A DNA stretch of 64,000 nt, taken from the UHGV virus genome UHGV-1493261, one strand, 5' to 3'. Both the position numbers and the translations under genes were made by a program. This stretch comes from a virus. Positions within the stretch are counted from its first letter, which is position 1, and each line of letters opens with the position of its first letter. Below are positions 9,146 to 17,759 of the stretch, piece after piece. The notes below the pieces were generated by a model. It had not been told where the DNA came from and ran no database searches. It was given only the letters and a program-made list of their open reading frames with translations.

Positions 9146-10075
9146 ATGTTTTACGAATTATTGATTTCTAAAGGCGGTAAACCGCATTTTATCAAGAAGT
9201 ATTTGAGGATGATTCAATCTTTCAAATATTCTGATGGTGACTACACTGAATTACACCACATCCTTCCCAAGAGCATGTTCCCTGAATATTCTAAAGATAA
9301 GATCAATTTGGCAAGACTTACTGGCAGGCAACATTATCTTGCCCATGTGTGTTTGGCCTTGGCTTTCCCGAATTCTGATATGGTATATGCTGTTATTTTG
9401 ATGAGCCGTGGGGGTAGGTATACACCAACGGGTATAAAATTTAATTCTCACCTTTACGAAAAGTTAAGGAAAGAATTTGGACAAAGAATATCCAAACTCA
9501 CAAAGGGTGTCTCTAAATGCGTCGGGGCAAACAACCCAATGTATGGGAGAAGAGGAAAGAATAATCCCCAATATAGATATAAGAGAACTCCAGAGCAAGT
9601 CAAGAAAATTACCAAAGGATTGATGAAAATCCATGAAAGGATGGCTTCTGATCCTGAATATAAAAGGCGGGTTTTAGAGAAACGCCGCGCCAACATGGAT
9701 TTAGAACAATTTTCTGAACGTGCCAGGAAAGCTAAACTTGGGGAACTTAATCCAAATCATGGCAAAGATATTACCAACACGTTTACCCCTGAACAACGAC
9801 AGAAACAAATAGAAGGTATTAGAAAAGCCCATTTATCAAAAATGCCCTGGGAGAAACCGCGTTGGTCTGATGAAAAGGACATGTATTGGGCGAAAGCTGA
9901 TAAATTCCTTGAAGCAATGAAAACAATGAAAAGAGCGGAAGCCCTCATGCATGTGTACGGAACAAAGGATTTGAAGGCTTTTAATGCGACAAACAGCATT
10001 ATCGAACGTTTCAATAGAGGGTGGGAACCTTTGAAATGTCCTAAATGGACAGAACGATACGGTTCTTCTGAATAA
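9146..10075 (+). CDS. HNH homing endonuclease with NUMOD-like repeats
   Basis: ELHHILPKSMFPEY...NLARLTGRQHYLAHV (HNH motif); NPMYGRRGKNNPQY and NPNHGK repeats. Visibly AT-rich codons compared with flanking genes. Free-standing between conserved genes. Confidence 0.8.
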   Translation: MFYELLISKGGKPHFIKKYLRMIQSFKYSDGDYTELHHILPKSMFPEYSKDKINLARLTGRQHYLAHVCLALAFPNSDMVYAVILMSRGGRYTPTGIKFNSHLYEKLRKEFGQRISKLTKGVSKCVGANNPMYGRRGKNNPQYRYKRTPEQVKKITKGLMKIHERMASDPEYKRRVLEKRRANMDLEQFSERARKAKLGELNPNHGKDITNTFTPEQRQKQIEGIRKAHLSKMPWEKPRWSDEKDMYWAKADKFLEAMKTMKRAEALMHVYGTKDLKAFNATNSIIERFNRGWEPLKCPKWTERYGSSE

Positions 10076-10138
10076 AGATTCCCTTTACTTCGTTCTTCAA
10101 TAACTCAATCCAGCGTATATTGACCTCACTTAAACGAA

Positions 10139-10178
10139 GCGCCCTGGCAAACGGGGCGCACATTTGAACTGAAACAGG
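10139..10178 (+). promoter_or_regulatory. GC hairpin / ATTTGAA cassette
   Basis: Hairpin GCGCCC-loop-GGGCGC (10139-10159) then ACATTTGAACTGAAAC and GGAAGATTACATCATG 10190. Confidence 0.4.
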
Positions 10179-10189
10179 AAGATTACATC

Positions 10190-12208
10190 ATGTCAGATTT
10201 TAAGTCCTTCGCAGTAGCTGTCAACAATAACGTGCTGGCCATGTCAGCAACTGGTCTGTTCATGACCAACATCGATAAAGATGCTCTGTGGGATCTGTAT
10301 CTGTCTTCTTTCCCTGCTGGCACTAACCCGCTTTATCGTGAGCGTACCGAGCACGACTGCACCTGCTGTAAACAATTCATCCGTAACATTGGCGGTGTGG
10401 TCACCATCGACTCCGACCTGAACGTGATCTCTATCTGGGATAACATTCAGCTGGGTAACGAATACGACGTTGTCTCTGCGGCGCTGTCAGCGTATGTTAA
10501 GCAGCACGCAATCGTCGACGTGTACTTCAACGACACCAAGAAAGTTGGTGTTGAGTCGAATCACGAAATGAAAGACGGTATTGTCCGCACCTACAACCAC
10601 TTCCACACCGACCTGCTGGGTAGCTATGTTCTGCGGGCAGATACCATCGCTTCTAAGAAGGGTGAAATCCGCCAGGCGATTGAAGTGTTTGAGCGCGGCC
10701 TGCGCGAACTGTCTCTGGAATCGGCTGAAATCGTCCTGGAACTGATCGATCAGAATTCTCTGTATCGCGGTGAAGAGCACAAAGCGGCAGTGCAGGCGTT
10801 CGTGGTGAACAAGACCATGTACGAACAAACTGCAGAAGAGAAACGCGCTCTGTGGGCTTGGCGCACTGGCTACCGTGCAAACGGTCATACCCCTCACGGC
10901 ATTCGTAATACCGTGATTGGCTCTCTGCTGGTAGACCTCAATGAAGGCCGGGATCTGGAAACCGCCGTGAAGTCCTTTGAAGCCAAAGTCGCTCCGACGA
11001 ACTACAAGCGCCCGACTGCGCTGGTGACAAAGTCGATGATCGAAAACGCGCAGAAAGAAGTCGAAGCGCTGGGTCTGACTGATTCGCTGGGTCGCCGTTA
11101 TGCCGTGTATGACGATCTGACCATCAACAACGTTCTGTTCGCCGATCTGGCAGCGCAGAAGAAGATGGACCCGTTTGCTCAACTGGCGTCTGAAGTGAAG
11201 ACTCCGACCAAGTCCCTGGATAAGGTTGAAGAGATCACCATCGACGACTTCCTGGCCAACGTGTTGCCAAAGGCGCATTCCATGGAAGTGCTGGTTGAGA
11301 ACTCTCACATTGGCAACCTGATGTCTCTGATCGCTCCGGCGAACCCAGATGCACCTAACCTGTTCAAGTGGAACAACGGCTTCAGCTGGTCATACAACGG
11401 TGAAGTGGCAGACTCCATCAAAGAGCGCGTGAAGACCGCTGGTGGCAACGTTGACAGCTTCCTCCGTGTGTCACTGGCTTGGCATAACAACGACGACCTG
11501 GATCTGAGCCTGAACGATCCTCTTCACAACCACGTGTACTTCCGCAACCGTCGTTCGTCAACAGGTGCAACCCTGGACATCGATATGAACGGTATGGATG
11601 GCATTGACCCAAATCGCCGTCCGGTGGAGAACATCTTCTTCAGCGATGAACGCAAGCTACGTGACGGGAATTATGAGTTCTATGTCACCAACTACAACAA
11701 GCGTGAAACCTGTGACGTTGGCTTCGAAATCGAAGTCGAATACAAAGGCCAGACCAAGCGCTTCTCACATCCTGGTCTGGGTAACAAAGATCGCACGTTG
11801 GCTGTTGTGGTTCAGGTTCGCGCTGGTCAGGTAGTAGACATCCGTTCCACCCTGAAAGACGACGAACGCTCTCAGGAAATCTGGGGTATCAAGACTGCTA
11901 CCTTCCAGAAAGTACAGCTGGTCCTGAATTCACCAAACCATTGGGACGGCGAGCAGACGGGCAACAAGCACGTGTTCTTCATCCTGGAAGGTTGCGCCAA
12001 CCCTGTGGGCACCCGTGGCTTCTACAACGAATATCTGAAGCCGGAACTGGATAAACACCGCAAGGTTTTTGAAATGTTAGGTGGTAAGATTAAAGTACAG
12101 CCAAGCACTGAGCAGCTGTCCGGTCTGGGCTTCTCTACCACCCAACGCAACCACGTGTTCGTGAAGGTGAGCGGCTCGTTCAACCGCACTGTGAAAGTTG
12201 TGTTCTAA
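10190..12208 (+). CDS. hypothetical protein (672 aa)
   Basis: Long ORF with strong initiation context GGAAGATTACATCATG and upstream GC hairpin plus ATTTGAA element. No GHKL motifs, so not rIIA-like. Function unknown. Confidence 0.7.
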   Translation: MSDFKSFAVAVNNNVLAMSATGLFMTNIDKDALWDLYLSSFPAGTNPLYRERTEHDCTCCKQFIRNIGGVVTIDSDLNVISIWDNIQLGNEYDVVSAALSAYVKQHAIVDVYFNDTKKVGVESNHEMKDGIVRTYNHFHTDLLGSYVLRADTIASKKGEIRQAIEVFERGLRELSLESAEIVLELIDQNSLYRGEEHKAAVQAFVVNKTMYEQTAEEKRALWAWRTGYRANGHTPHGIRNTVIGSLLVDLNEGRDLETAVKSFEAKVAPTNYKRPTALVTKSMIENAQKEVEALGLTDSLGRRYAVYDDLTINNVLFADLAAQKKMDPFAQLASEVKTPTKSLDKVEEITIDDFLANVLPKAHSMEVLVENSHIGNLMSLIAPANPDAPNLFKWNNGFSWSYNGEVADSIKERVKTAGGNVDSFLRVSLAWHNNDDLDLSLNDPLHNHVYFRNRRSSTGATLDIDMNGMDGIDPNRRPVENIFFSDERKLRDGNYEFYVTNYNKRETCDVGFEIEVEYKGQTKRFSHPGLGNKDRTLAVVVQVRAGQVVDIRSTLKDDERSQEIWGIKTATFQKVQLVLNSPNHWDGEQTGNKHVFFILEGCANPVGTRGFYNEYLKPELDKHRKVFEMLGGKIKVQPSTEQLSGLGFSTTQRNHVFVKVSGSFNRTVKVVF

Positions 12209-12646: not shown

Positions 12647-12675
12647 AACCCCGCCATGTGCGGGGTTTCTTTTGG
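12647..12675 (+). terminator. rho-independent terminator
   Basis: CCCCGC / loop CATGT / GCGGGG then TTTCTTTTGG, after the stop at 12624. Confidence 0.6.
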
Positions 12676-12684
12676 ACAAAGAAT

Positions 12685-13059
12685 ATGAAACCTGTTATAT
12701 GTGATTACTGTGGCCTCCCAGCCGAATTCGTCGGTGGTGATGTTCTCTACCCTCATCGCCCTGACCTCCGTAATCTGAAGTTCTGGGTTTGCACCCCGTG
12801 TGATGCCCGTGTCGGTTGCCATGCCCATGGCGGCGGCAGACAACCTTTGGGAAGGATGGCGAATGCCGCTCTCCGTGCCGAGAAGCAAAATGCCCATAGA
12901 TCGTTTGACCCATTGTGGAAAAGCGGAGAGAGGAGCAGGAGCGACGCTTACAGTTGGCTGGCGCATAAGCTGGGGATAAAGAAGCGTGAGTGTCATATTG
13001 GTTTGTTCGATATCGACATGTGCCGTAAAGTAGTGGAGGTCTGTAAACAAATATCATAG
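12685..13059 (+). CDS. zinc-finger protein (Cys-rich)
   Basis: Start at ATG 12685 inside track ORF 12658. CDYCG...CTPCDARVGCH Cys/His cluster. Weak RBS. Confidence 0.45.
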   Translation: MKPVICDYCGLPAEFVGGDVLYPHRPDLRNLKFWVCTPCDARVGCHAHGGGRQPLGRMANAALRAEKQNAHRSFDPLWKSGERSRSDAYSWLAHKLGIKKRECHIGLFDIDMCRKVVEVCKQIS

Positions 13060-13067
13060 GATAACAC

Positions 13068-13940
13068 ATGACAAATCGTACTGGCATAAAACTCACTCCT
13101 GAAGTCCTGAAGTCACATATCGCTGAGGTGATTTACGAAGACCGCGAAGTCGGCGGTCACCGGGCTATCACTTGTCATTTCAAGATGGATAACGGCTTCG
13201 TCGTTCACGGCACCAAGCCCAGCACATCCATAGACCCGGCCAACTTCGATGAAGCCCTGGGCAAAGAGATTTCCTACAATAACACCTTCGACCAGCTGTG
13301 GCAGCTGGAGGCGTACCGGGCGCTTGTTGAACAAGATCTGTTGGCCAAAGCCACGGAAACGGCAGAGATACAGATCGATCAATACGCTGTTGAACGTAGC
13401 GCCCTCTGTCCGGCCTATCACCTCGGCTTCAATGTGATGGTTCAGGAAGTGATGTTCAAAGCGGAAAATGGTGAGCGCTTCTTGGCATCTTTCGTTTGTG
13501 GGCCGGATGACATGGAACTTGTTGTTGAATCTCACAACGCCAAATCTCGTAAGGCTGTTAGTGATTTCCTGCGCGCCAACTCCAAACTCGATCTCACTTA
13601 TTCGCCATTGGTTCTGCGCATCGCCAAGATTTGTCATGAAGCCAACCGCGCATACTGCAAGTCTATTGGTGACGACTCTCAACTGCCTTGGGAACAATCT
13701 CCGGCCTGGCAGCGTGAGAGCGCTTGCAAAGGTGTTATCTTCCATCTCACTGGTGATCGTAAGCCCAGCGAATCGCATGAGAGATGGATGGCGGAGAAGG
13801 AGTCTGAGGGATGGGTGTATGGCCCAGTCAAAGACCCTCAGACCAAGCAACACCCTTGCATGGTTCCGTATGGAGAACTCCCGGTACAACAACGCTCCAA
13901 AGATTATATTTTCAAATCCATTGTAGACTCCTTTAAATAA
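13068..13940 (+). CDS. RyR-domain protein
   Basis: C-terminal HERWMAEKESEGWVYGPVKDPQTKQHPCMVPYGELPVQQRSKD matches the ryanodine-receptor (RyR) repeat pattern (W..GW.YG...D...K.HP.L.PY..L). N-terminal 200 aa unassigned. Confidence 0.6.
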   Translation: MTNRTGIKLTPEVLKSHIAEVIYEDREVGGHRAITCHFKMDNGFVVHGTKPSTSIDPANFDEALGKEISYNNTFDQLWQLEAYRALVEQDLLAKATETAEIQIDQYAVERSALCPAYHLGFNVMVQEVMFKAENGERFLASFVCGPDDMELVVESHNAKSRKAVSDFLRANSKLDLTYSPLVLRIAKICHEANRAYCKSIGDDSQLPWEQSPAWQRESACKGVIFHLTGDRKPSESHERWMAEKESEGWVYGPVKDPQTKQHPCMVPYGELPVQQRSKDYIFKSIVDSFK

Positions 13941-13974
13941 GCTCTGAATAATATTTCAACCTGTCAATAATATA

Positions 13975-14010
13975 ATGCCCGGTTATATTCAATCGGGCAT
14001 TTTTATTATA
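13975..14010 (+). terminator. rho-independent terminator
   Basis: ATGCCCG / 12-nt loop / CGGGCAT then TTTTATTAT. Preceded by TATAAT at 13971-13976. Confidence 0.55.
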
Positions 14011-14090
14011 TTAATTGGCATCAATACCGCCTGTCGTAATATAATAGTCCCATGTTGAAATAGTTGGGAAATATAACTCACGAGAGCCTG

Positions 14091-14267
14091 ATGACCGACA
14101 ACAAATTAAAACGCGCCGGACTTGATTGTCTTGACAATTCATTCCGCCCCAGTGATGTTCTGGTCGCCCAAATGGAAAACAACCGGGATTTCATTGAAAC
14201 TATGCTGGAGAACGCCGACGCGAACTCCAAACACTCCAAAGCCCAAAAAGGTCAAAACGATGATTGA
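14091..14267 (+). CDS. small hypothetical protein (58 aa)
   Basis: ATG 14091 after GAGAG; charged helical peptide; stop overlaps the start of the vWA gene by 8 nt. Below the 60-aa cut-off from this start. Confidence 0.3.
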   Translation: MTDNKLKRAGLDCLDNSFRPSDVLVAQMENNRDFIETMLENADANSKHSKAQKGQNDD

Positions 14268-16461
14268 GTCATTAACATTTAAGAATGCGGTTGCGACCGT
14301 CGCGCCGTCTAACCATGTAATCGTTGTGGATATCTCCGGTTCCATGTATCGTTCACTTCCAGAAGTCCGTAAGCATCTGAAGGAGAACCTGCCTTCCCTG
14401 GTGAAACCCGAAGATACTGTGAGCATCCTTTACTTTTCATCTCGCGGTGATTTCGGAACGGTATTTGCCGGACGTCAGATCGGTGTCGCATCTGACCTGA
14501 GCGAGCTGAATAAGCTGATCGACCGTTTCCTGCAACCATCCGGCTGTACTGGTTTTGTTGAGCCATTGAAACTGGCGATGGATACTGCGCGCGGCCTGAA
14601 GAAACCCGGCTACGTCAACAACCTGGCATTCATGACCGATGGTTATGACAACTGCTGGCGCTCCAATGAAATCCTGGATACCGCCGAAAAACTTCCTTCC
14701 GCGTTCGACAACGTTACATTCATCGAATACGGCTGGCACTGTAACCGTGAACTGCTGGCGCAGATGGCCGAACGCTCTGGTGCAACCCACGTTTTCGCCG
14801 AAGGTCAGACTGAATATCAGACCGAGCTGGAAAACGTGCTGAAGTCATCAGTGCCGAAGGTGAAAGTTGATGTCCCAGTCATCTACACCCATGCCATCTA
14901 CGTCGAAAACGGTGTGGCAACAGTACTGGCGGTGCAGGACGATGACGCTCACCCGGTCGGTTATGTGAGCATCCCTGAGAGCGTCACCAAGCTGTGGGTT
15001 GTAAACCCTAACATGATCGACCAGATGGATAGCCTGACGGACATCCAGGCGGCATACGTGCTGGCGTTCTACGGCGTACACACTATGGACGCAGATCTGG
15101 TTTGGGCTGCGCTGAAGAAGACGGGCGACGTTCGCTTCATCAAACAGTACAGCAACTGCTTCACCAAGCAGGACTACTCCAACATCAAGAACGATCTGAC
15201 CCAGGCCATCGTTGATGACCAGCTGCGCGGCGTTGACGGTATTGACTATGACCTGGTTCCAGCTGAAGATGCGACCACCGTCGTTGATGTGCTGACGTAC
15301 CTGGCTGAAGCTGGTGTGCCTGTTGCTACCAAGCATCCGATGTTCTCCTATAAGAGTATCGGGCGCGGTACGGTTCAGAAAACCGACGACACCGAAGACA
15401 AGCTGGCAGAACAGATCGCGAATGCTCAGTCCAAAGAAGAGCGTAAAGCCCTGGCTCTCAAGCTGGCAGAACACGAAGAGTGGAACCCGACGTTCGAACC
15501 TACCAACGACCTGGGTGTTGTGCCAATCAGCGATTTGGTCTATAATTCCGAACGCCCGAACATCAGTGTGCGTACAATTCAACACGGTACTGTGGCTGTG
15601 CCTGAATTCGCACAGAAGAAGTTTGGCCTGCCTGAAGAACTGGATACTTTCCAGTGGCGCAACTACACCATCGTCAAAGATGGTATCATCAACGTGAAGA
15701 CCCTGCCGTTCAAGGCTGATATCGAAGTTGTACAGAAGCTGATCGAAATGGGCGTCCACGTGTTTGGTGGTCCGGAAGTGTTCATCTTGAACCTGGAAAG
15801 CGTACCGCTGGTCAACCGCGCCATGGTCAAGAACATCAGTGCTGCTCAGTTCTTTGCGGATAATGTCCGTCTGGAAGCCCTGAAAGGCAAGCAGAAGGTG
15901 CTGAAGTTCTATCGAGACGCCCTGGTTGGTAAGGGTAACGCCAAAGGCCTGGCAGTACAGTACGGCGCTGAGGCGGCCGAGTTCCTGTCCTCCTATGGCA
16001 TCCGCGATTACGGCTTCTCACCGAAGACTGAGACCAAAGAGTCTACCGACTTCTACATGAGCCGTGAGCTGAACGTGAAGATCGCTGGCGCTTCTTCTCT
16101 ACCGTCTATCGCAGCGGTACAGAAGAAGATAGCCGAGAACAAGAAACTCAATGCTGGTGACTTGTTCATCGCCAATGCGCTGAAGGAGTACGAAGCATTC
16201 GTGAAGTCTCCTATGATCACTGCCGTGCCTGAAGCCTTACAGAAACATCTGATCGAAAACTGGATCGACGCTGCTGCCAAGGCGGCCATCACCGAAGTCC
16301 GTGCTCTGAACAAGACGCTGTCTAAAGTGGTGTATGGTATCGTTGCTGGTCATGGCTGGTTCACCGACCTCGACCTGGAAGAGTCCACCATGGAAGTTGA
16401 AGTGGATGGGGTGAAGTACAAGGTCACTGCCGAACTGGCAGAGAAAGAAATCAAAATCTAA
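14260..16461 (+). CDS. vWA-domain protein (MIDAS motif), 733 aa
   Basis: Start at ATG 14260 (AAAGG RBS) inside track ORF 14122. N-terminal VIVVDISGSM...ILYFSSRGD...FMTDG fits a von Willebrand A fold with DxSxS MIDAS. About 500 aa C-terminal unassigned. Confidence 0.7.
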   Translation: MIESLTFKNAVATVAPSNHVIVVDISGSMYRSLPEVRKHLKENLPSLVKPEDTVSILYFSSRGDFGTVFAGRQIGVASDLSELNKLIDRFLQPSGCTGFVEPLKLAMDTARGLKKPGYVNNLAFMTDGYDNCWRSNEILDTAEKLPSAFDNVTFIEYGWHCNRELLAQMAERSGATHVFAEGQTEYQTELENVLKSSVPKVKVDVPVIYTHAIYVENGVATVLAVQDDDAHPVGYVSIPESVTKLWVVNPNMIDQMDSLTDIQAAYVLAFYGVHTMDADLVWAALKKTGDVRFIKQYSNCFTKQDYSNIKNDLTQAIVDDQLRGVDGIDYDLVPAEDATTVVDVLTYLAEAGVPVATKHPMFSYKSIGRGTVQKTDDTEDKLAEQIANAQSKEERKALALKLAEHEEWNPTFEPTNDLGVVPISDLVYNSERPNISVRTIQHGTVAVPEFAQKKFGLPEELDTFQWRNYTIVKDGIINVKTLPFKADIEVVQKLIEMGVHVFGGPEVFILNLESVPLVNRAMVKNISAAQFFADNVRLEALKGKQKVLKFYRDALVGKGNAKGLAVQYGAEAAEFLSSYGIRDYGFSPKTETKESTDFYMSRELNVKIAGASSLPSIAAVQKKIAENKKLNAGDLFIANALKEYEAFVKSPMITAVPEALQKHLIENWIDAAAKAAITEVRALNKTLSKVVYGIVAGHGWFTDLDLEESTMEVEVDGVKYKVTAELAEKEIKI

Positions 16462-16465
16462 TCCA

Positions 16466-16493
16466 ACGGGCGGGTTGCCCCGCCTTTCTTTGG
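16466..16493 (+). terminator. GC hairpin with T-tract between vWA and ACP-like genes
   Basis: GGGCGGG / TTG / CCCCGCC then TTTCTTTGGG. Same hairpin family as the cassettes at 4972 and 17206. Confidence 0.45.
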
Positions 16494-16503
16494 GAGAAGT
16501 AGC

Positions 16504-16830
16504 ATGAGCAGTAAACCAACATATGTTGAAGTCATGCGTCATCTGGCTCAGTACGCCACTGACAATTTGAACTTAGATGCAGATGAGGTGAAATACCCAG
16601 ACGTCAAGAAAATGATTGACGGCGAAGTTGTCATAGACGATGCGTTGGACAAGTTTGCAGGCCTCCGCACCAAGAAAGATCTGGGTGGTGACGAACTCGA
16701 TACCATCGAAATCGTGATGGACCTGGAAGAAGAGTTCAACGTCGAAATCGACGACGGTTGGCTAGGTAGTAAAGGCGATGACCCGACCATGGGTGAACTC
16801 GCTGAACTCGTGGTTGCCCTGCGCAAATAA
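16504..16830 (+). CDS. acyl-carrier-protein-like protein lacking the phosphopantetheine serine
   Basis: DLGGDELDTIEIVMDLEEEFNVEID aligns with E. coli ACP [25 protein letters not shown] but has DELD in place of DSLD. GGGAGA RBS. Terminator at 16837-16866. Confidence 0.6.
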   Translation: MSSKPTYVEVMRHLAQYATDNLNLDADEVKYPDVKKMIDGEVVIDDALDKFAGLRTKKDLGGDELDTIEIVMDLEEEFNVEIDDGWLGSKGDDPTMGELAELVVALRK

Positions 16831-16836
16831 CAGAAG

Positions 16837-16866
16837 TCCCCAACAAACGTTGGGGATTTTTACTTT
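16837..16866 (+). terminator. rho-independent terminator
   Basis: TCCCCAAC / AAAC / GTTGGGGA then TTTTTACTTTT, after the ACP-like gene. Confidence 0.65.
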
Positions 16867-16872
16867 TAGGGG

Positions 16873-17196: not shown

Positions 17197-17240
17197 TATA
17201 ACTTTGGGCGGGGTATGATTACCCCGTCTATTTGAAATGC
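17197..17240 (+). promoter_or_regulatory. TATAAC / GC hairpin / ATTTGAAAT cassette
   Basis: TATAAC (17197-17202), hairpin GGGCGGGGTATGATTACCCCGTC (17206-17228), TATTTGAAATG (17229-17239), then AGGAACTATACCATG. Confidence 0.5.
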
Positions 17241-17252
17241 AGGAACTATACC

Positions 17253-17759
17253 ATGACCGATCAACAAATTCAAGATTTATTTTACCTCGTCCATGATAAG
17301 TCCCACATCATGCGCCCCGGTACTGTTTCCCCTGCCGTCCGTGATCTGGTGCAAGAATTGCGCGAACCACAGACGACCACACTTTATCGCGGGTTGCCTA
17401 AAGAGGACGTTGCGCGTTTAGAGATGATGTTTGAACGAGGCGACATGTTCCAGACATGGGATTCTTGCCTTAGCTTCAGTGAACTGAAGCATGTGGCCAA
17501 AAAATTTTCTAAATCGTACGGAACCCAAGCTGTTGCCCGCATTTGTTACAAACATCGAAACAGACTCCCGGAGGGGCTTAATGTCTATGGTTCTCTAGAA
17601 AAATTTGTGAACAAAGGCGATGAATCAGAAATGGATATGCTGGACTTGGCGTCCATGGAGAAAGAATGGATATTCTGCCAGCCTCGCGTCATACCAGTTT
17701 CAAGAAAAATGGCAACAGACGGGACGATGGTTTTTACCGTATCACTTGTTACTCTATAA
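17253..17759 (+). CDS. hypothetical protein
   Basis: Start at ATG 17253 with context AGGAACTATACCATG. Track start 17232 is a TTG inside the ATTTGAAAT element. 168 aa. Confidence 0.55.
   Translation: MTDQQIQDLFYLVHDKSHIMRPGTVSPAVRDLVQELREPQTTTLYRGLPKEDVARLEMMFERGDMFQTWDSCLSFSELKHVAKKFSKSYGTQAVARICYKHRNRLPEGLNVYGSLEKFVNKGDESEMDMLDLASMEKEWIFCQPRVIPVSRKMATDGTMVFTVSLVTL

Follow-up and report, generated by a model that had tools for sequence, protein, structure and literature searches.

The locus in a Kuttervirus-like phage genome

Virus genome UHGV-1493261 was analyzed here over a stretch of 64,000 nucleotides, hereafter the window, in which a large gene encoding a von Willebrand A (vWA) domain protein is followed on the same strand by a small gene whose product resembles acyl carrier protein (ACP) and carries glutamate at the position of the phosphopantetheine-accepting serine. 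As claimed in the first-pass annotation of this DNA, the first open reading frame (ORF) runs from an ATG at 14260 to a stop at 16461 and encodes 733 amino acids, while the second runs from an ATG at 16504 to a stop at 16830 and encodes 108. Both lie within a short, terminator-bounded unit in which a small ORF, the vWA gene, a hairpin, and the ACP-like gene follow one another.

Nucleotide comparison assigns the window to the Ackermannviridae (Kuttervirus-like): Escherichia phage vB_EcoM-ZQ1 matches it best (92.8% nucleotide identity), and the 224 records that match the window DNA are mainly phages of Salmonella, Escherichia, Dickeya, and Klebsiella with lengths of 150-160 kb. The genome is not T4-like in the strict sense, yet T4-type replication genes are present. 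In Salmonella phage Maynard, a Kuttervirus, the counterparts of the two genes are annotated as "vWFA domain containing protein" (Maynard_87) and "acyl carrier protein" (Maynard_88), and are placed between a clamp-loader/RegA block and a helicase/RNase H block. The pair was originally assigned to an accessory block; since it is present in approximately 270 sequenced members of the Ackermannviridae, it is not accessory in that family.

The ACP-like protein and its attachment position

The ACP-like protein (16504..16830, plus strand; isoelectric point (pI) 4.2) comprises an extra N-terminal helix, a variable segment at about residues 24-47, helix II at residues 63-78, and a loop containing W86-G88-D92-D93-P94-T95-G97-E98-L99. 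The PF00550 PP-binding profile matches it above threshold (23.7 bits, cut-off 20.8), and it belongs over its full length to phrog_4154, a PHROGs family labelled "acyl carrier protein"; a phmmer search of PDB sequences retrieved 95 solved ACP sequences at E <= 1, the best at 7.6e-07. All ten NCBIfam ACP models score it below their cut-offs, the best being TIGR00517 (36.4 bits against 70.45). The earlier description of an almost textbook ACP helix II is supported by the PF00550 match and by 17 identities over 25 residues with Escherichia coli AcpP, from DLGGDELD to VEID and including the equivalents of E41, V43, M44, E47-E49, and F50, in an alignment made by direct reading against the AcpP sequence. 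The two proteins are also similar in acidity, with pI values of 4.19 (phage protein, 27 of 108 residues acidic) and 4.05 (AcpP). An AlphaFold (AF2) model built from 21 homologs predicts helices at residues 33-39, 44-52, 64-78, and 96-106, together with the extra helix at residues 7-21, and is of moderate confidence, with a predicted local distance difference test score (pLDDT) of 75 and a predicted template modeling score (pTM) of 0.68. Compared with the PDB by Foldseek, this model retrieved ACPs only (target-normalised TM 0.6-0.7, probability <=0.99, E-values 0.1-1), which, at that level of confidence, agrees with the ACP fold proposed at the outset.

What separates the protein from a functional ACP is the codon GAA at 16693..16695 (plus strand), which, by alignment to ACPs, encodes Glu64 at the position of the phosphopantetheine-accepting serine. 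The three alignments displayed, which involve ACPs of Plasmodium and Bacillus subtilis, pair DELD with DSLD; the serine-to-glutamate change first read from this sequence is therefore upheld, and phosphopantetheinylation at the canonical site is impossible. Only three serines (S2, S3, and S89) are present in the entire protein, none of them near the attachment position. Nor is the substitution peculiar to the window, as the conserved D-S-L serine of functional ACPs is replaced by E or D in every family member examined. Among 21 cluster representatives (58-94% identity) the position holds E, with D in two and S in none, and in 14 divergent members, down to 23% identity, it is acidic and never Ser, as exemplified by Serratia phage 3M (FDELD, 28% identity) and Erwinia phage Bue1 (MDELD, 23% identity). 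Similarly, 23 distinct locus copies carry E (16 copies) or D (7 copies), and the metagenomic relatives P0144-P0152 display D[E/D]L at the attachment motif. Homologs retaining Ser, which the first-pass annotation had named as the mark of an ordinary carrier protein, are thus absent from the close, divergent, and locus sets alike; in a profile search of 1.8 billion representative proteins, P0144-P0152 were the nearest relatives, and Ser-bearing ACPs appeared only at E > 1e-10, outside the family.

The pattern of conservation is equally informative. Throughout the divergent set, D63, L65, I68, E69, M72, and E75 are invariant and form the frame of helix II, for which the conserved pattern is D63-x-L65-D66-x-I68-E69-x-V71-M72-x-L74-E75-E76-E77-F78. 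Within the 21-member set, invariance extends to Y7, V10, L14, A18, N21, and L22 of the N-terminal helix and to the residues of the W86-L99 loop listed above; both motifs are absent from canonical ACPs. The proteins of 3M and Bue1 have lost the DDPT loop and kept DELD-x-IE-x-x-MELE. Taken together, these data show that the ACP-like protein cannot be a canonical carrier and that its ACP docking helix is under selection. It is a stand-alone viral pseudo-ACP, a member of the ACP-fold superfamily that fails the defining feature of a functional ACP.

Acidic residues at this position are also encountered outside the phage family. Among 181 aligned domains of the best 150 hits of the profile search, 27 have E and 17 have D at the attachment position, counts that are biased by the Glu carried in the query profile itself. 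Many bacterial ACP-like proteins with D or E at the attachment serine bear lipoprotein-type or signal sequences such as '...LTGCATAP' and '...LLAGCGVY' (for example P0192, P0209, P0223, P0235, P0237, P0249, P0272, P0274, and P0289), and, judged from their sequences, would be exported pseudo-ACPs beyond the reach of phosphopantetheinylation. Bacterial D[E/D]LD ACP-like genes at loci L170-L173, all on short contigs, have no vWA neighbour. Stand-alone ACP genes with DSLD are common in unrelated viral contigs (L104-L163), where the non-Ser exceptions are DELD in L106 (5842-6243) and L134 (5830-6147) and DALD in L108 (5917-6150).

The vWA protein

The product of the upstream gene (14260..16461, plus strand; phrog_2426) consists of a vWA domain and beta-sandwich (about residues 1-250) followed by approximately 480 residues of helical and beta domains. 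The vWA domain proper spans residues 17-195 or so (14308..14844, plus strand); Pfam VWA (PF00092) covers residues 20-184 with 34 bits against a cut-off of 23.8, and the predicted fold is Rossmann-like alpha/beta. The metal ion-dependent adhesion site (MIDAS) is complete, its residues D24-I-S26-G-S28, T97, and D127 being invariant, or conserved to 90% or more, among 52 homologs with identities as low as 32%. The N-terminal vWA domain with a MIDAS recognized at first inspection is thus confirmed, and the intact site, as far as can be judged from its residues, implies metal-dependent binding of an acidic ligand.

Beyond about residue 250, the AlphaFold model, a confident one (pLDDT 87.7), contains a helical domain, a beta domain at residues 412-511, long helices at residues 528-696, and a terminal hairpin. 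No named relative was found for the part beyond the vWA domain and beta-sandwich by Pfam (on 52 members), NCBIfam, PADLOC, a PDB sequence profile, or Foldseek against BFVD, in keeping with the earlier statement that a C-terminal portion (about 500 residues there, about 480 here) could not be assigned. Proteins that combine a vWA domain with a beta-sandwich, namely the ArnB and Sec23-Sec24 trunk, ITIH heavy chains, and PDB entry 4fx5, share only 11-18% sequence identity with the phage protein over the alignments. Neither a zinc finger nor a gene for an FHA or AAA+ (MoxR/CobS-type) partner lies near the vWA gene of the window. No AAA+ or MoxR gene is found among the vWA neighbours in the window or in Maynard, and the protein consequently lacks the MoxR/CobS-type partner that characterizes CobT, BchD, NorD, and CoxE; VWA_CoxE is matched by only 3 of the 52 family members, at E >= 0.21.

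In the virion proteome of a Vi01-like phage, the vWA and ACP-like proteins were recovered just once each, and both are therefore read as probably non-structural. One record labels the vWA gene "tail protein", a label that was not adopted, as nothing else found supports it.

Organization of the transcription unit

The preceding unit is closed by a terminator-like hairpin with an 11-bp stem and T-run (13974..14001, plus strand), and a terminator is annotated at the equivalent position in Maynard. A sigma-70-like promoter candidate (TTGGCA, 16 nt, TAATAT) lies at 14015..14042 on the plus strand and is weak, matching at 9 of 12 positions; the number of sigma-70-like sites in the region is not clearly above shuffle expectation. 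The first gene of the unit is the small ORF, annotated Maynard_86 in that phage, which encodes 58 amino acids from its ATG (14091..14267, plus strand) and runs 8 nt into the start of the vWA gene (ATGATTGA). This overlap suggests translational coupling, and both it and the ORF are kept in Kuttervirus-like relatives, in which the product shows the conserved motif AGVD-LD--F-PS-VL--QIE-NREFIE-ML...GNNDD. Among the loci compared, the ORF was not found upstream of vWA genes in distant vWA-carrying phages; RB43-type phages have in its place an unrelated ORF of approximately 115 amino acids.

Directly 3' of the vWA stop lies a GC hairpin (16468..16485, plus strand) of 6-7 bp, GGGCGGG-TTGC-CCCGCC then TTTCTTT, which is annotated as a terminator in Maynard. 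Its position is constant in relatives, and its stem is retained by compensatory changes on both sides (GGCGGG/CCCGCC, GCCGGG/CCCGGC, GGGGGC/GCCCCC, and GCCCCC/GGGGGC), and single-sequence folds recover it in every relative folded, at -14 to -19 kcal/mol per copy. A T-run follows the hairpin in most relatives and is absent in L164 and L169. The element is probably a leaky terminator or an mRNA 3' stabiliser. A direct reading of the sequence places a Shine-Dalgarno element, GGGAG, 7 nt before the ACP-like ATG (16492..16496, plus strand). Finally, the unit ends at a strong intrinsic terminator (16837..16868, plus strand), in which a stem of up to 13 bp, folded from 16837-16856, is followed by a U-run, AUUUUUACUUUU; the structure has a free energy of -18.5 kcal/mol (z = -3.46), and 0 of 200 shuffles were as stable. 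A GC hairpin between the genes and a strong terminator behind them are therefore present as first described. The further claim that the hairpin belongs to a family used elsewhere in the window fails, as only one match at <=3 mismatches exists and no repeated sequence family is found.

Distribution, linkage, and divergence

The ACP-like gene is found by tblastn in 272 phage records. The matches listed are phages of enterobacterial hosts with genomes of 139-161 kb, consistent with the Ackermannviridae, the exception being one weak match in the Pseudomonas phage HRDY3 (314 kb). The vWA protein is more widespread: it occurs in 504 phage records, comprising the Ackermannviridae and approximately 230 others without the ACP-like gene, among them RB43, Miller, KP15-like Klebsiella and Enterobacter T4-likes, Shewanella phage Thanatos-1, and Rhizobium and Ralstonia phages. 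Metagenomic homologs of the vWA protein extend to contigs of 300-500 kb at 33-36% identity. The initial remark that the pair is not recognized from T4 is accurate in that no characterized T4-core homolog of the vWA protein was found, an outcome that had been named in advance as bearing against the proposal had it been otherwise; it needs amending in that the phage belongs to the Ackermannviridae and the vWA protein does occur, without the ACP-like gene, in RB43/KP15/Miller-type T4-likes.

Co-conservation was assessed at 80 viral loci around vWA homologs, each taken with 10 kb on either side and searched with profiles of the ACP-like protein and of E. coli ACP. The ACP-like gene was found solely in Ackermannviridae-type loci, which rules out an obligatory pairing. 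Since the vWA family exists in T4-like phages without the ACP-like gene, the pairing is lineage-specific, and the vWA protein does not need the ACP-like protein. At distant vWA loci the other genes of the window do not recur either, two isolated matches aside, and no conserved vWA neighbour is common to more than 12 of the 60 distant loci. That the vWA gene alone has moved horizontally from one phage lineage to another is suggested by L034. On this IMG/VR contig (144,974 bp), the vWA gene (10001-12199; 68% identity to that of the window) sits in a completely different neighbourhood, ahead of a 285-aa ORF and an HNH-like ORF, and an ACP-like gene is absent from its vicinity.

Nearly all Ackermannviridae have 38-44 nt between the vWA gene and the ACP-like gene that follows it. 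Even P0146, P0149, and P0152, whose ACP-like proteins are only 34-51% identical to that of the window, are encoded 38-42 nt behind vWA genes that are 71-77% identical (37% vs 77% for P0149; 34% vs 71% for P0152). In locus L005, identity reaches 96% for the vWA protein and 99% for p79, encoded downstream, as compared to only 78% for the ACP-like protein. Measured by such identities, the ACP-like gene diverges much faster than the neighbouring vWA gene while its position stays fixed, a pattern typical of host-interaction genes. Serratia phage 3M departs from this spacing, with 882 nt containing further coding sequence between the two genes. In addition, residues 24-47 or so of the ACP-like protein (16573-16644) exist in at least two very different allelic forms in close relatives, 'DADEVKYPDVKKMIDGEVVIDD' and 'DLWRDDDKRKLLDDVAAQNED'. 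Which form a relative carries does not follow the similarity of the genes on either side, a pattern that suggests recombination, or diversifying selection, limited to this segment.

Other genes at the locus

Several neighbouring genes were also noted. Upstream, a 672-aa protein (10190-12208; phrog_1735) has no Pfam, NCBIfam, or PADLOC match and is syntenic across the Ackermannviridae at 52-97% identity. A 133-aa DUF3268 zinc-finger protein (12658-13059; E = 1.2e-37) is conserved in most relatives; a DUF3268 gene also lies approximately 8 kb from the vWA gene in the distant locus L067. A 290-aa protein (13068-13940) combines an N-terminal Phage_gp49_66 domain with a C-terminal ryanodine-receptor repeat (RyR) domain, and at this position relatives carry a copy that is either approximately 97% or only about 40-48% identical. 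In the metagenomic locus L164 (1027-3542), phosphoribosyltransferase and NAPRTase genes of NAD salvage type lie between the RyR-domain and vWA genes. Downstream, a 175-aa protein (17232-17759) aligns at E = 1e-15 with the C-terminal end of the phrog_832 profile (positions 1265-1425 of 1480), which is labelled 'RNA polymerase ADP-ribosylase'; as this gene is present in only some relatives (L009, L014, L017, and L031), it behaves as a variable accessory gene.

Possible roles of the ACP-like protein

Because the attachment serine is always replaced by Glu or Asp, the ACP-like protein probably works by binding other proteins. The reading we favour, at a probability of roughly 40%, is that this carrier-dead member of the ACP fold binds its partners through helix II and is most likely a decoy for host ACP clients. 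According to this proposal, the Ackermannviridae would keep the protein for protein binding and not for acyl-group carriage; helix II, the docking surface of real ACP, would occupy host ACP-binding proteins to which no acyl chain or cofactor would be delivered, and during infection the protein would thereby serve as a decoy or a competitive inhibitor. The acidic side chain of Glu/Asp64 may replace the negative charge of the Ser36 phosphodiester. Candidate targets would be clients that accept unmodified ACP, namely MukB and PlsB, and apo-ACP is toxic through PlsB. Helix II of ACP (L42-V43-M44 and flanking acidic residues) has been described as the docking site for SpoT, MukB, and fatty-acid enzymes (PMC3340395), and the MukB ATPase is stimulated to the same extent by the apo and holo forms of AcpP (PMC8602292). 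A further study describes T7 gp5.9 as targeting and inhibiting MukBEF (PMC7617805). The decoy role is rated likeliest because the vWA family is independent of the ACP-like protein, the latter evolves in a fast and mosaic manner, its deepest conservation falls on helix II, and at least one client accepts unmodified ACP.

Several considerations weigh against the decoy proposal. Firstly, the underlying structural model has its limits, as three of the five ACP-like models scored below 50 and the best reached a pLDDT of 75. Secondly, the best PDB sequence matches are Plasmodium and Bacillus ACPs and not enterobacterial AcpP, so that nothing points to mimicry of the host protein specifically; moreover, helix II is conserved in all ACPs, and its conservation does not single out host clients. 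Thirdly, docking on ACP clients could be prevented by the additional N-terminal helix and by the altered region of helix III, and some of these clients may reject the Glu variant. Earlier work by the group that described the docking site reportedly found that the SpoT interaction needs functional ACP. An unmodifiable ACP mutant, S36T, is listed in the docking-site study itself (PMC3340395). Lastly, a role as partner of the vWA protein would account just as well for the close linkage of the two genes that the family conserves. A more specific version of the proposal, in which an ACP mimic with a carboxylate in place of serine jams one particular host client (MukBEF, PlsB, or SpoT signalling) or, alternatively, plugs the MIDAS metal of the vWA protein, is somewhat doubtful.

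The second of these actions corresponds to the main rival explanation, unlikely in our estimation, which makes the ACP-like protein a partner dedicated to the vWA protein. Glu64 or Asp, exposed at the N-terminus of helix II, the site from which Ser36 of ordinary ACPs extends into enzymes, would complete the coordination of the MIDAS metal. Glu and Asp ligands complete the MIDAS in integrin I-domains, in anthrax toxin receptors, and in the Rea1 MIDAS domain. A partnership of this kind would account for the type of residue found at this position as well as for the constant order of the genes: the MIDAS of the vWA protein is intact and conserved, the substituted residue is always one of the two carboxylates that serve as MIDAS ligands, and the genes share one terminator-bounded unit with a spacing of 38-44 nt in nearly all Ackermannviridae, copies of only 34-51% identity included. 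Against this stands the unequal distribution of the two genes (504 records vs 272), with no ACP-like gene within 10 kb at RB43/KP15-type, Thanatos-1, or jumbo-phage loci, nor near the 68% identical vWA gene of L034. The linkage is itself interrupted, by 882 nt in Serratia phage 3M and elsewhere by a conserved hairpin annotated as a terminator, and that two genes are neighbours within a single syntenic virus family says little about function. The allelic type of the variable segment, furthermore, does not track vWA similarity, and bacterial D[ED]LD ACP-like genes, on the short contigs examined, occur without a vWA neighbour.

Less probable again is that the ACP fold is a mere scaffold and that the protein is a generic acidic inhibitor, acting as a nucleic-acid mimic or against a host defence or DNA-binding protein by way of its N-terminal helix and W-G-x-DDPT-GEL loop. 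The composition of the protein (pI 4.2, 27 of 108 residues acidic), its fast divergence and mosaic variable segment, and its early or replication-gene neighbourhood would all suit such an inhibitor, as would the invariance, in the 21-member set, of two elements that canonical ACPs lack. The deepest conservation, however, lies in helix II and not in these elements, given that 3M and Bue1 dispense with the DDPT loop and retain DELD-x-IE-x-x-MELE, and a search of PADLOC for host defence-system proteins yielded only one match, at an E-value (0.015) that is not meaningful.

Finally, a carrier loaded non-canonically (on another residue or by a phage enzyme) or a decaying, functionless remnant of a captured ACP gene would fit the database label and the frequency of Ser-bearing ACP genes in other viral contigs, by which phages evidently acquire real ACPs, but is very improbable, because the surroundings of the attachment site contain no conserved Ser, Thr, or Cys (S2, S3, and S89 being variable), no fatty-acid, polyketide, or phosphopantetheinyl-transferase gene is found among the Maynard annotations within 9 kb on either side or the eight neighbouring window ORFs scanned, all NCBIfam ACP models are failed by a wide margin (36 bits vs a cut-off of 70), and the ORF is intact, with a good ribosome-binding site, in 272 genomes, its motifs invariant at approximately 30% overall identity.

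Relation to known proteins and significance

Bacterial type II AcpP (PF00550) and the window protein are both small, acidic, and helical, with a nearly identical D-x-L-D frame and helix II. The phage protein differs in having Glu or Asp for the serine, an extra N-terminal helix of approximately 25 residues, and a conserved W-G-x-DDPT-GEL loop in place of the helix III region, and no lipid or polyketide enzymes were found in the neighbourhood scanned. Canonical phage ACPs (phrog_5934, and many IMG/VR contigs) are likewise small, stand-alone ACP-fold genes with helix II in common; they mostly keep DSLD, and could in principle be loaded, whereas the Ackermannviridae family never does. A different comparison is offered by T7 Ocr and gp5.9, which are also small, very acidic, fast-evolving, early-region proteins. 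These mimic DNA, whereas the window protein would mimic a host cofactor-carrier protein, and by analogy it may share their site-occupying mode of action.

The ACP-like protein is labelled "acyl carrier protein" in GenBank, PHROGs, and two papers, and a literature search found no paper on the Ser-to-Glu change or on the function of either protein. The present analysis corrects this annotation: the "acyl carrier protein" auxiliary metabolic genes of approximately 270 genomes cannot encode carriers. Some of the phages concerned are used for biocontrol of Salmonella and E. coli. The ACP-like protein also offers a natural probe for functions of ACP that are independent of the prosthetic group, and the intact MIDAS in a large family of phage vWA proteins (504 records) invites a search for its ligand.

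ACP is a highly connected protein, which serves fatty-acid, lipid A, lipoate, and biotin synthesis and binds MukB, SpoT, and IscS. The conservation of a non-loadable ACP look-alike points to an unrecognized interference with host metabolism or chromosome handling. If true, the version in which the protein jams a client or plugs the MIDAS would represent a new class of viral host-takeover or adaptor protein, and would supply a function for the wider set of D[E/D]LD pseudo-ACPs, including the exported bacterial ones.

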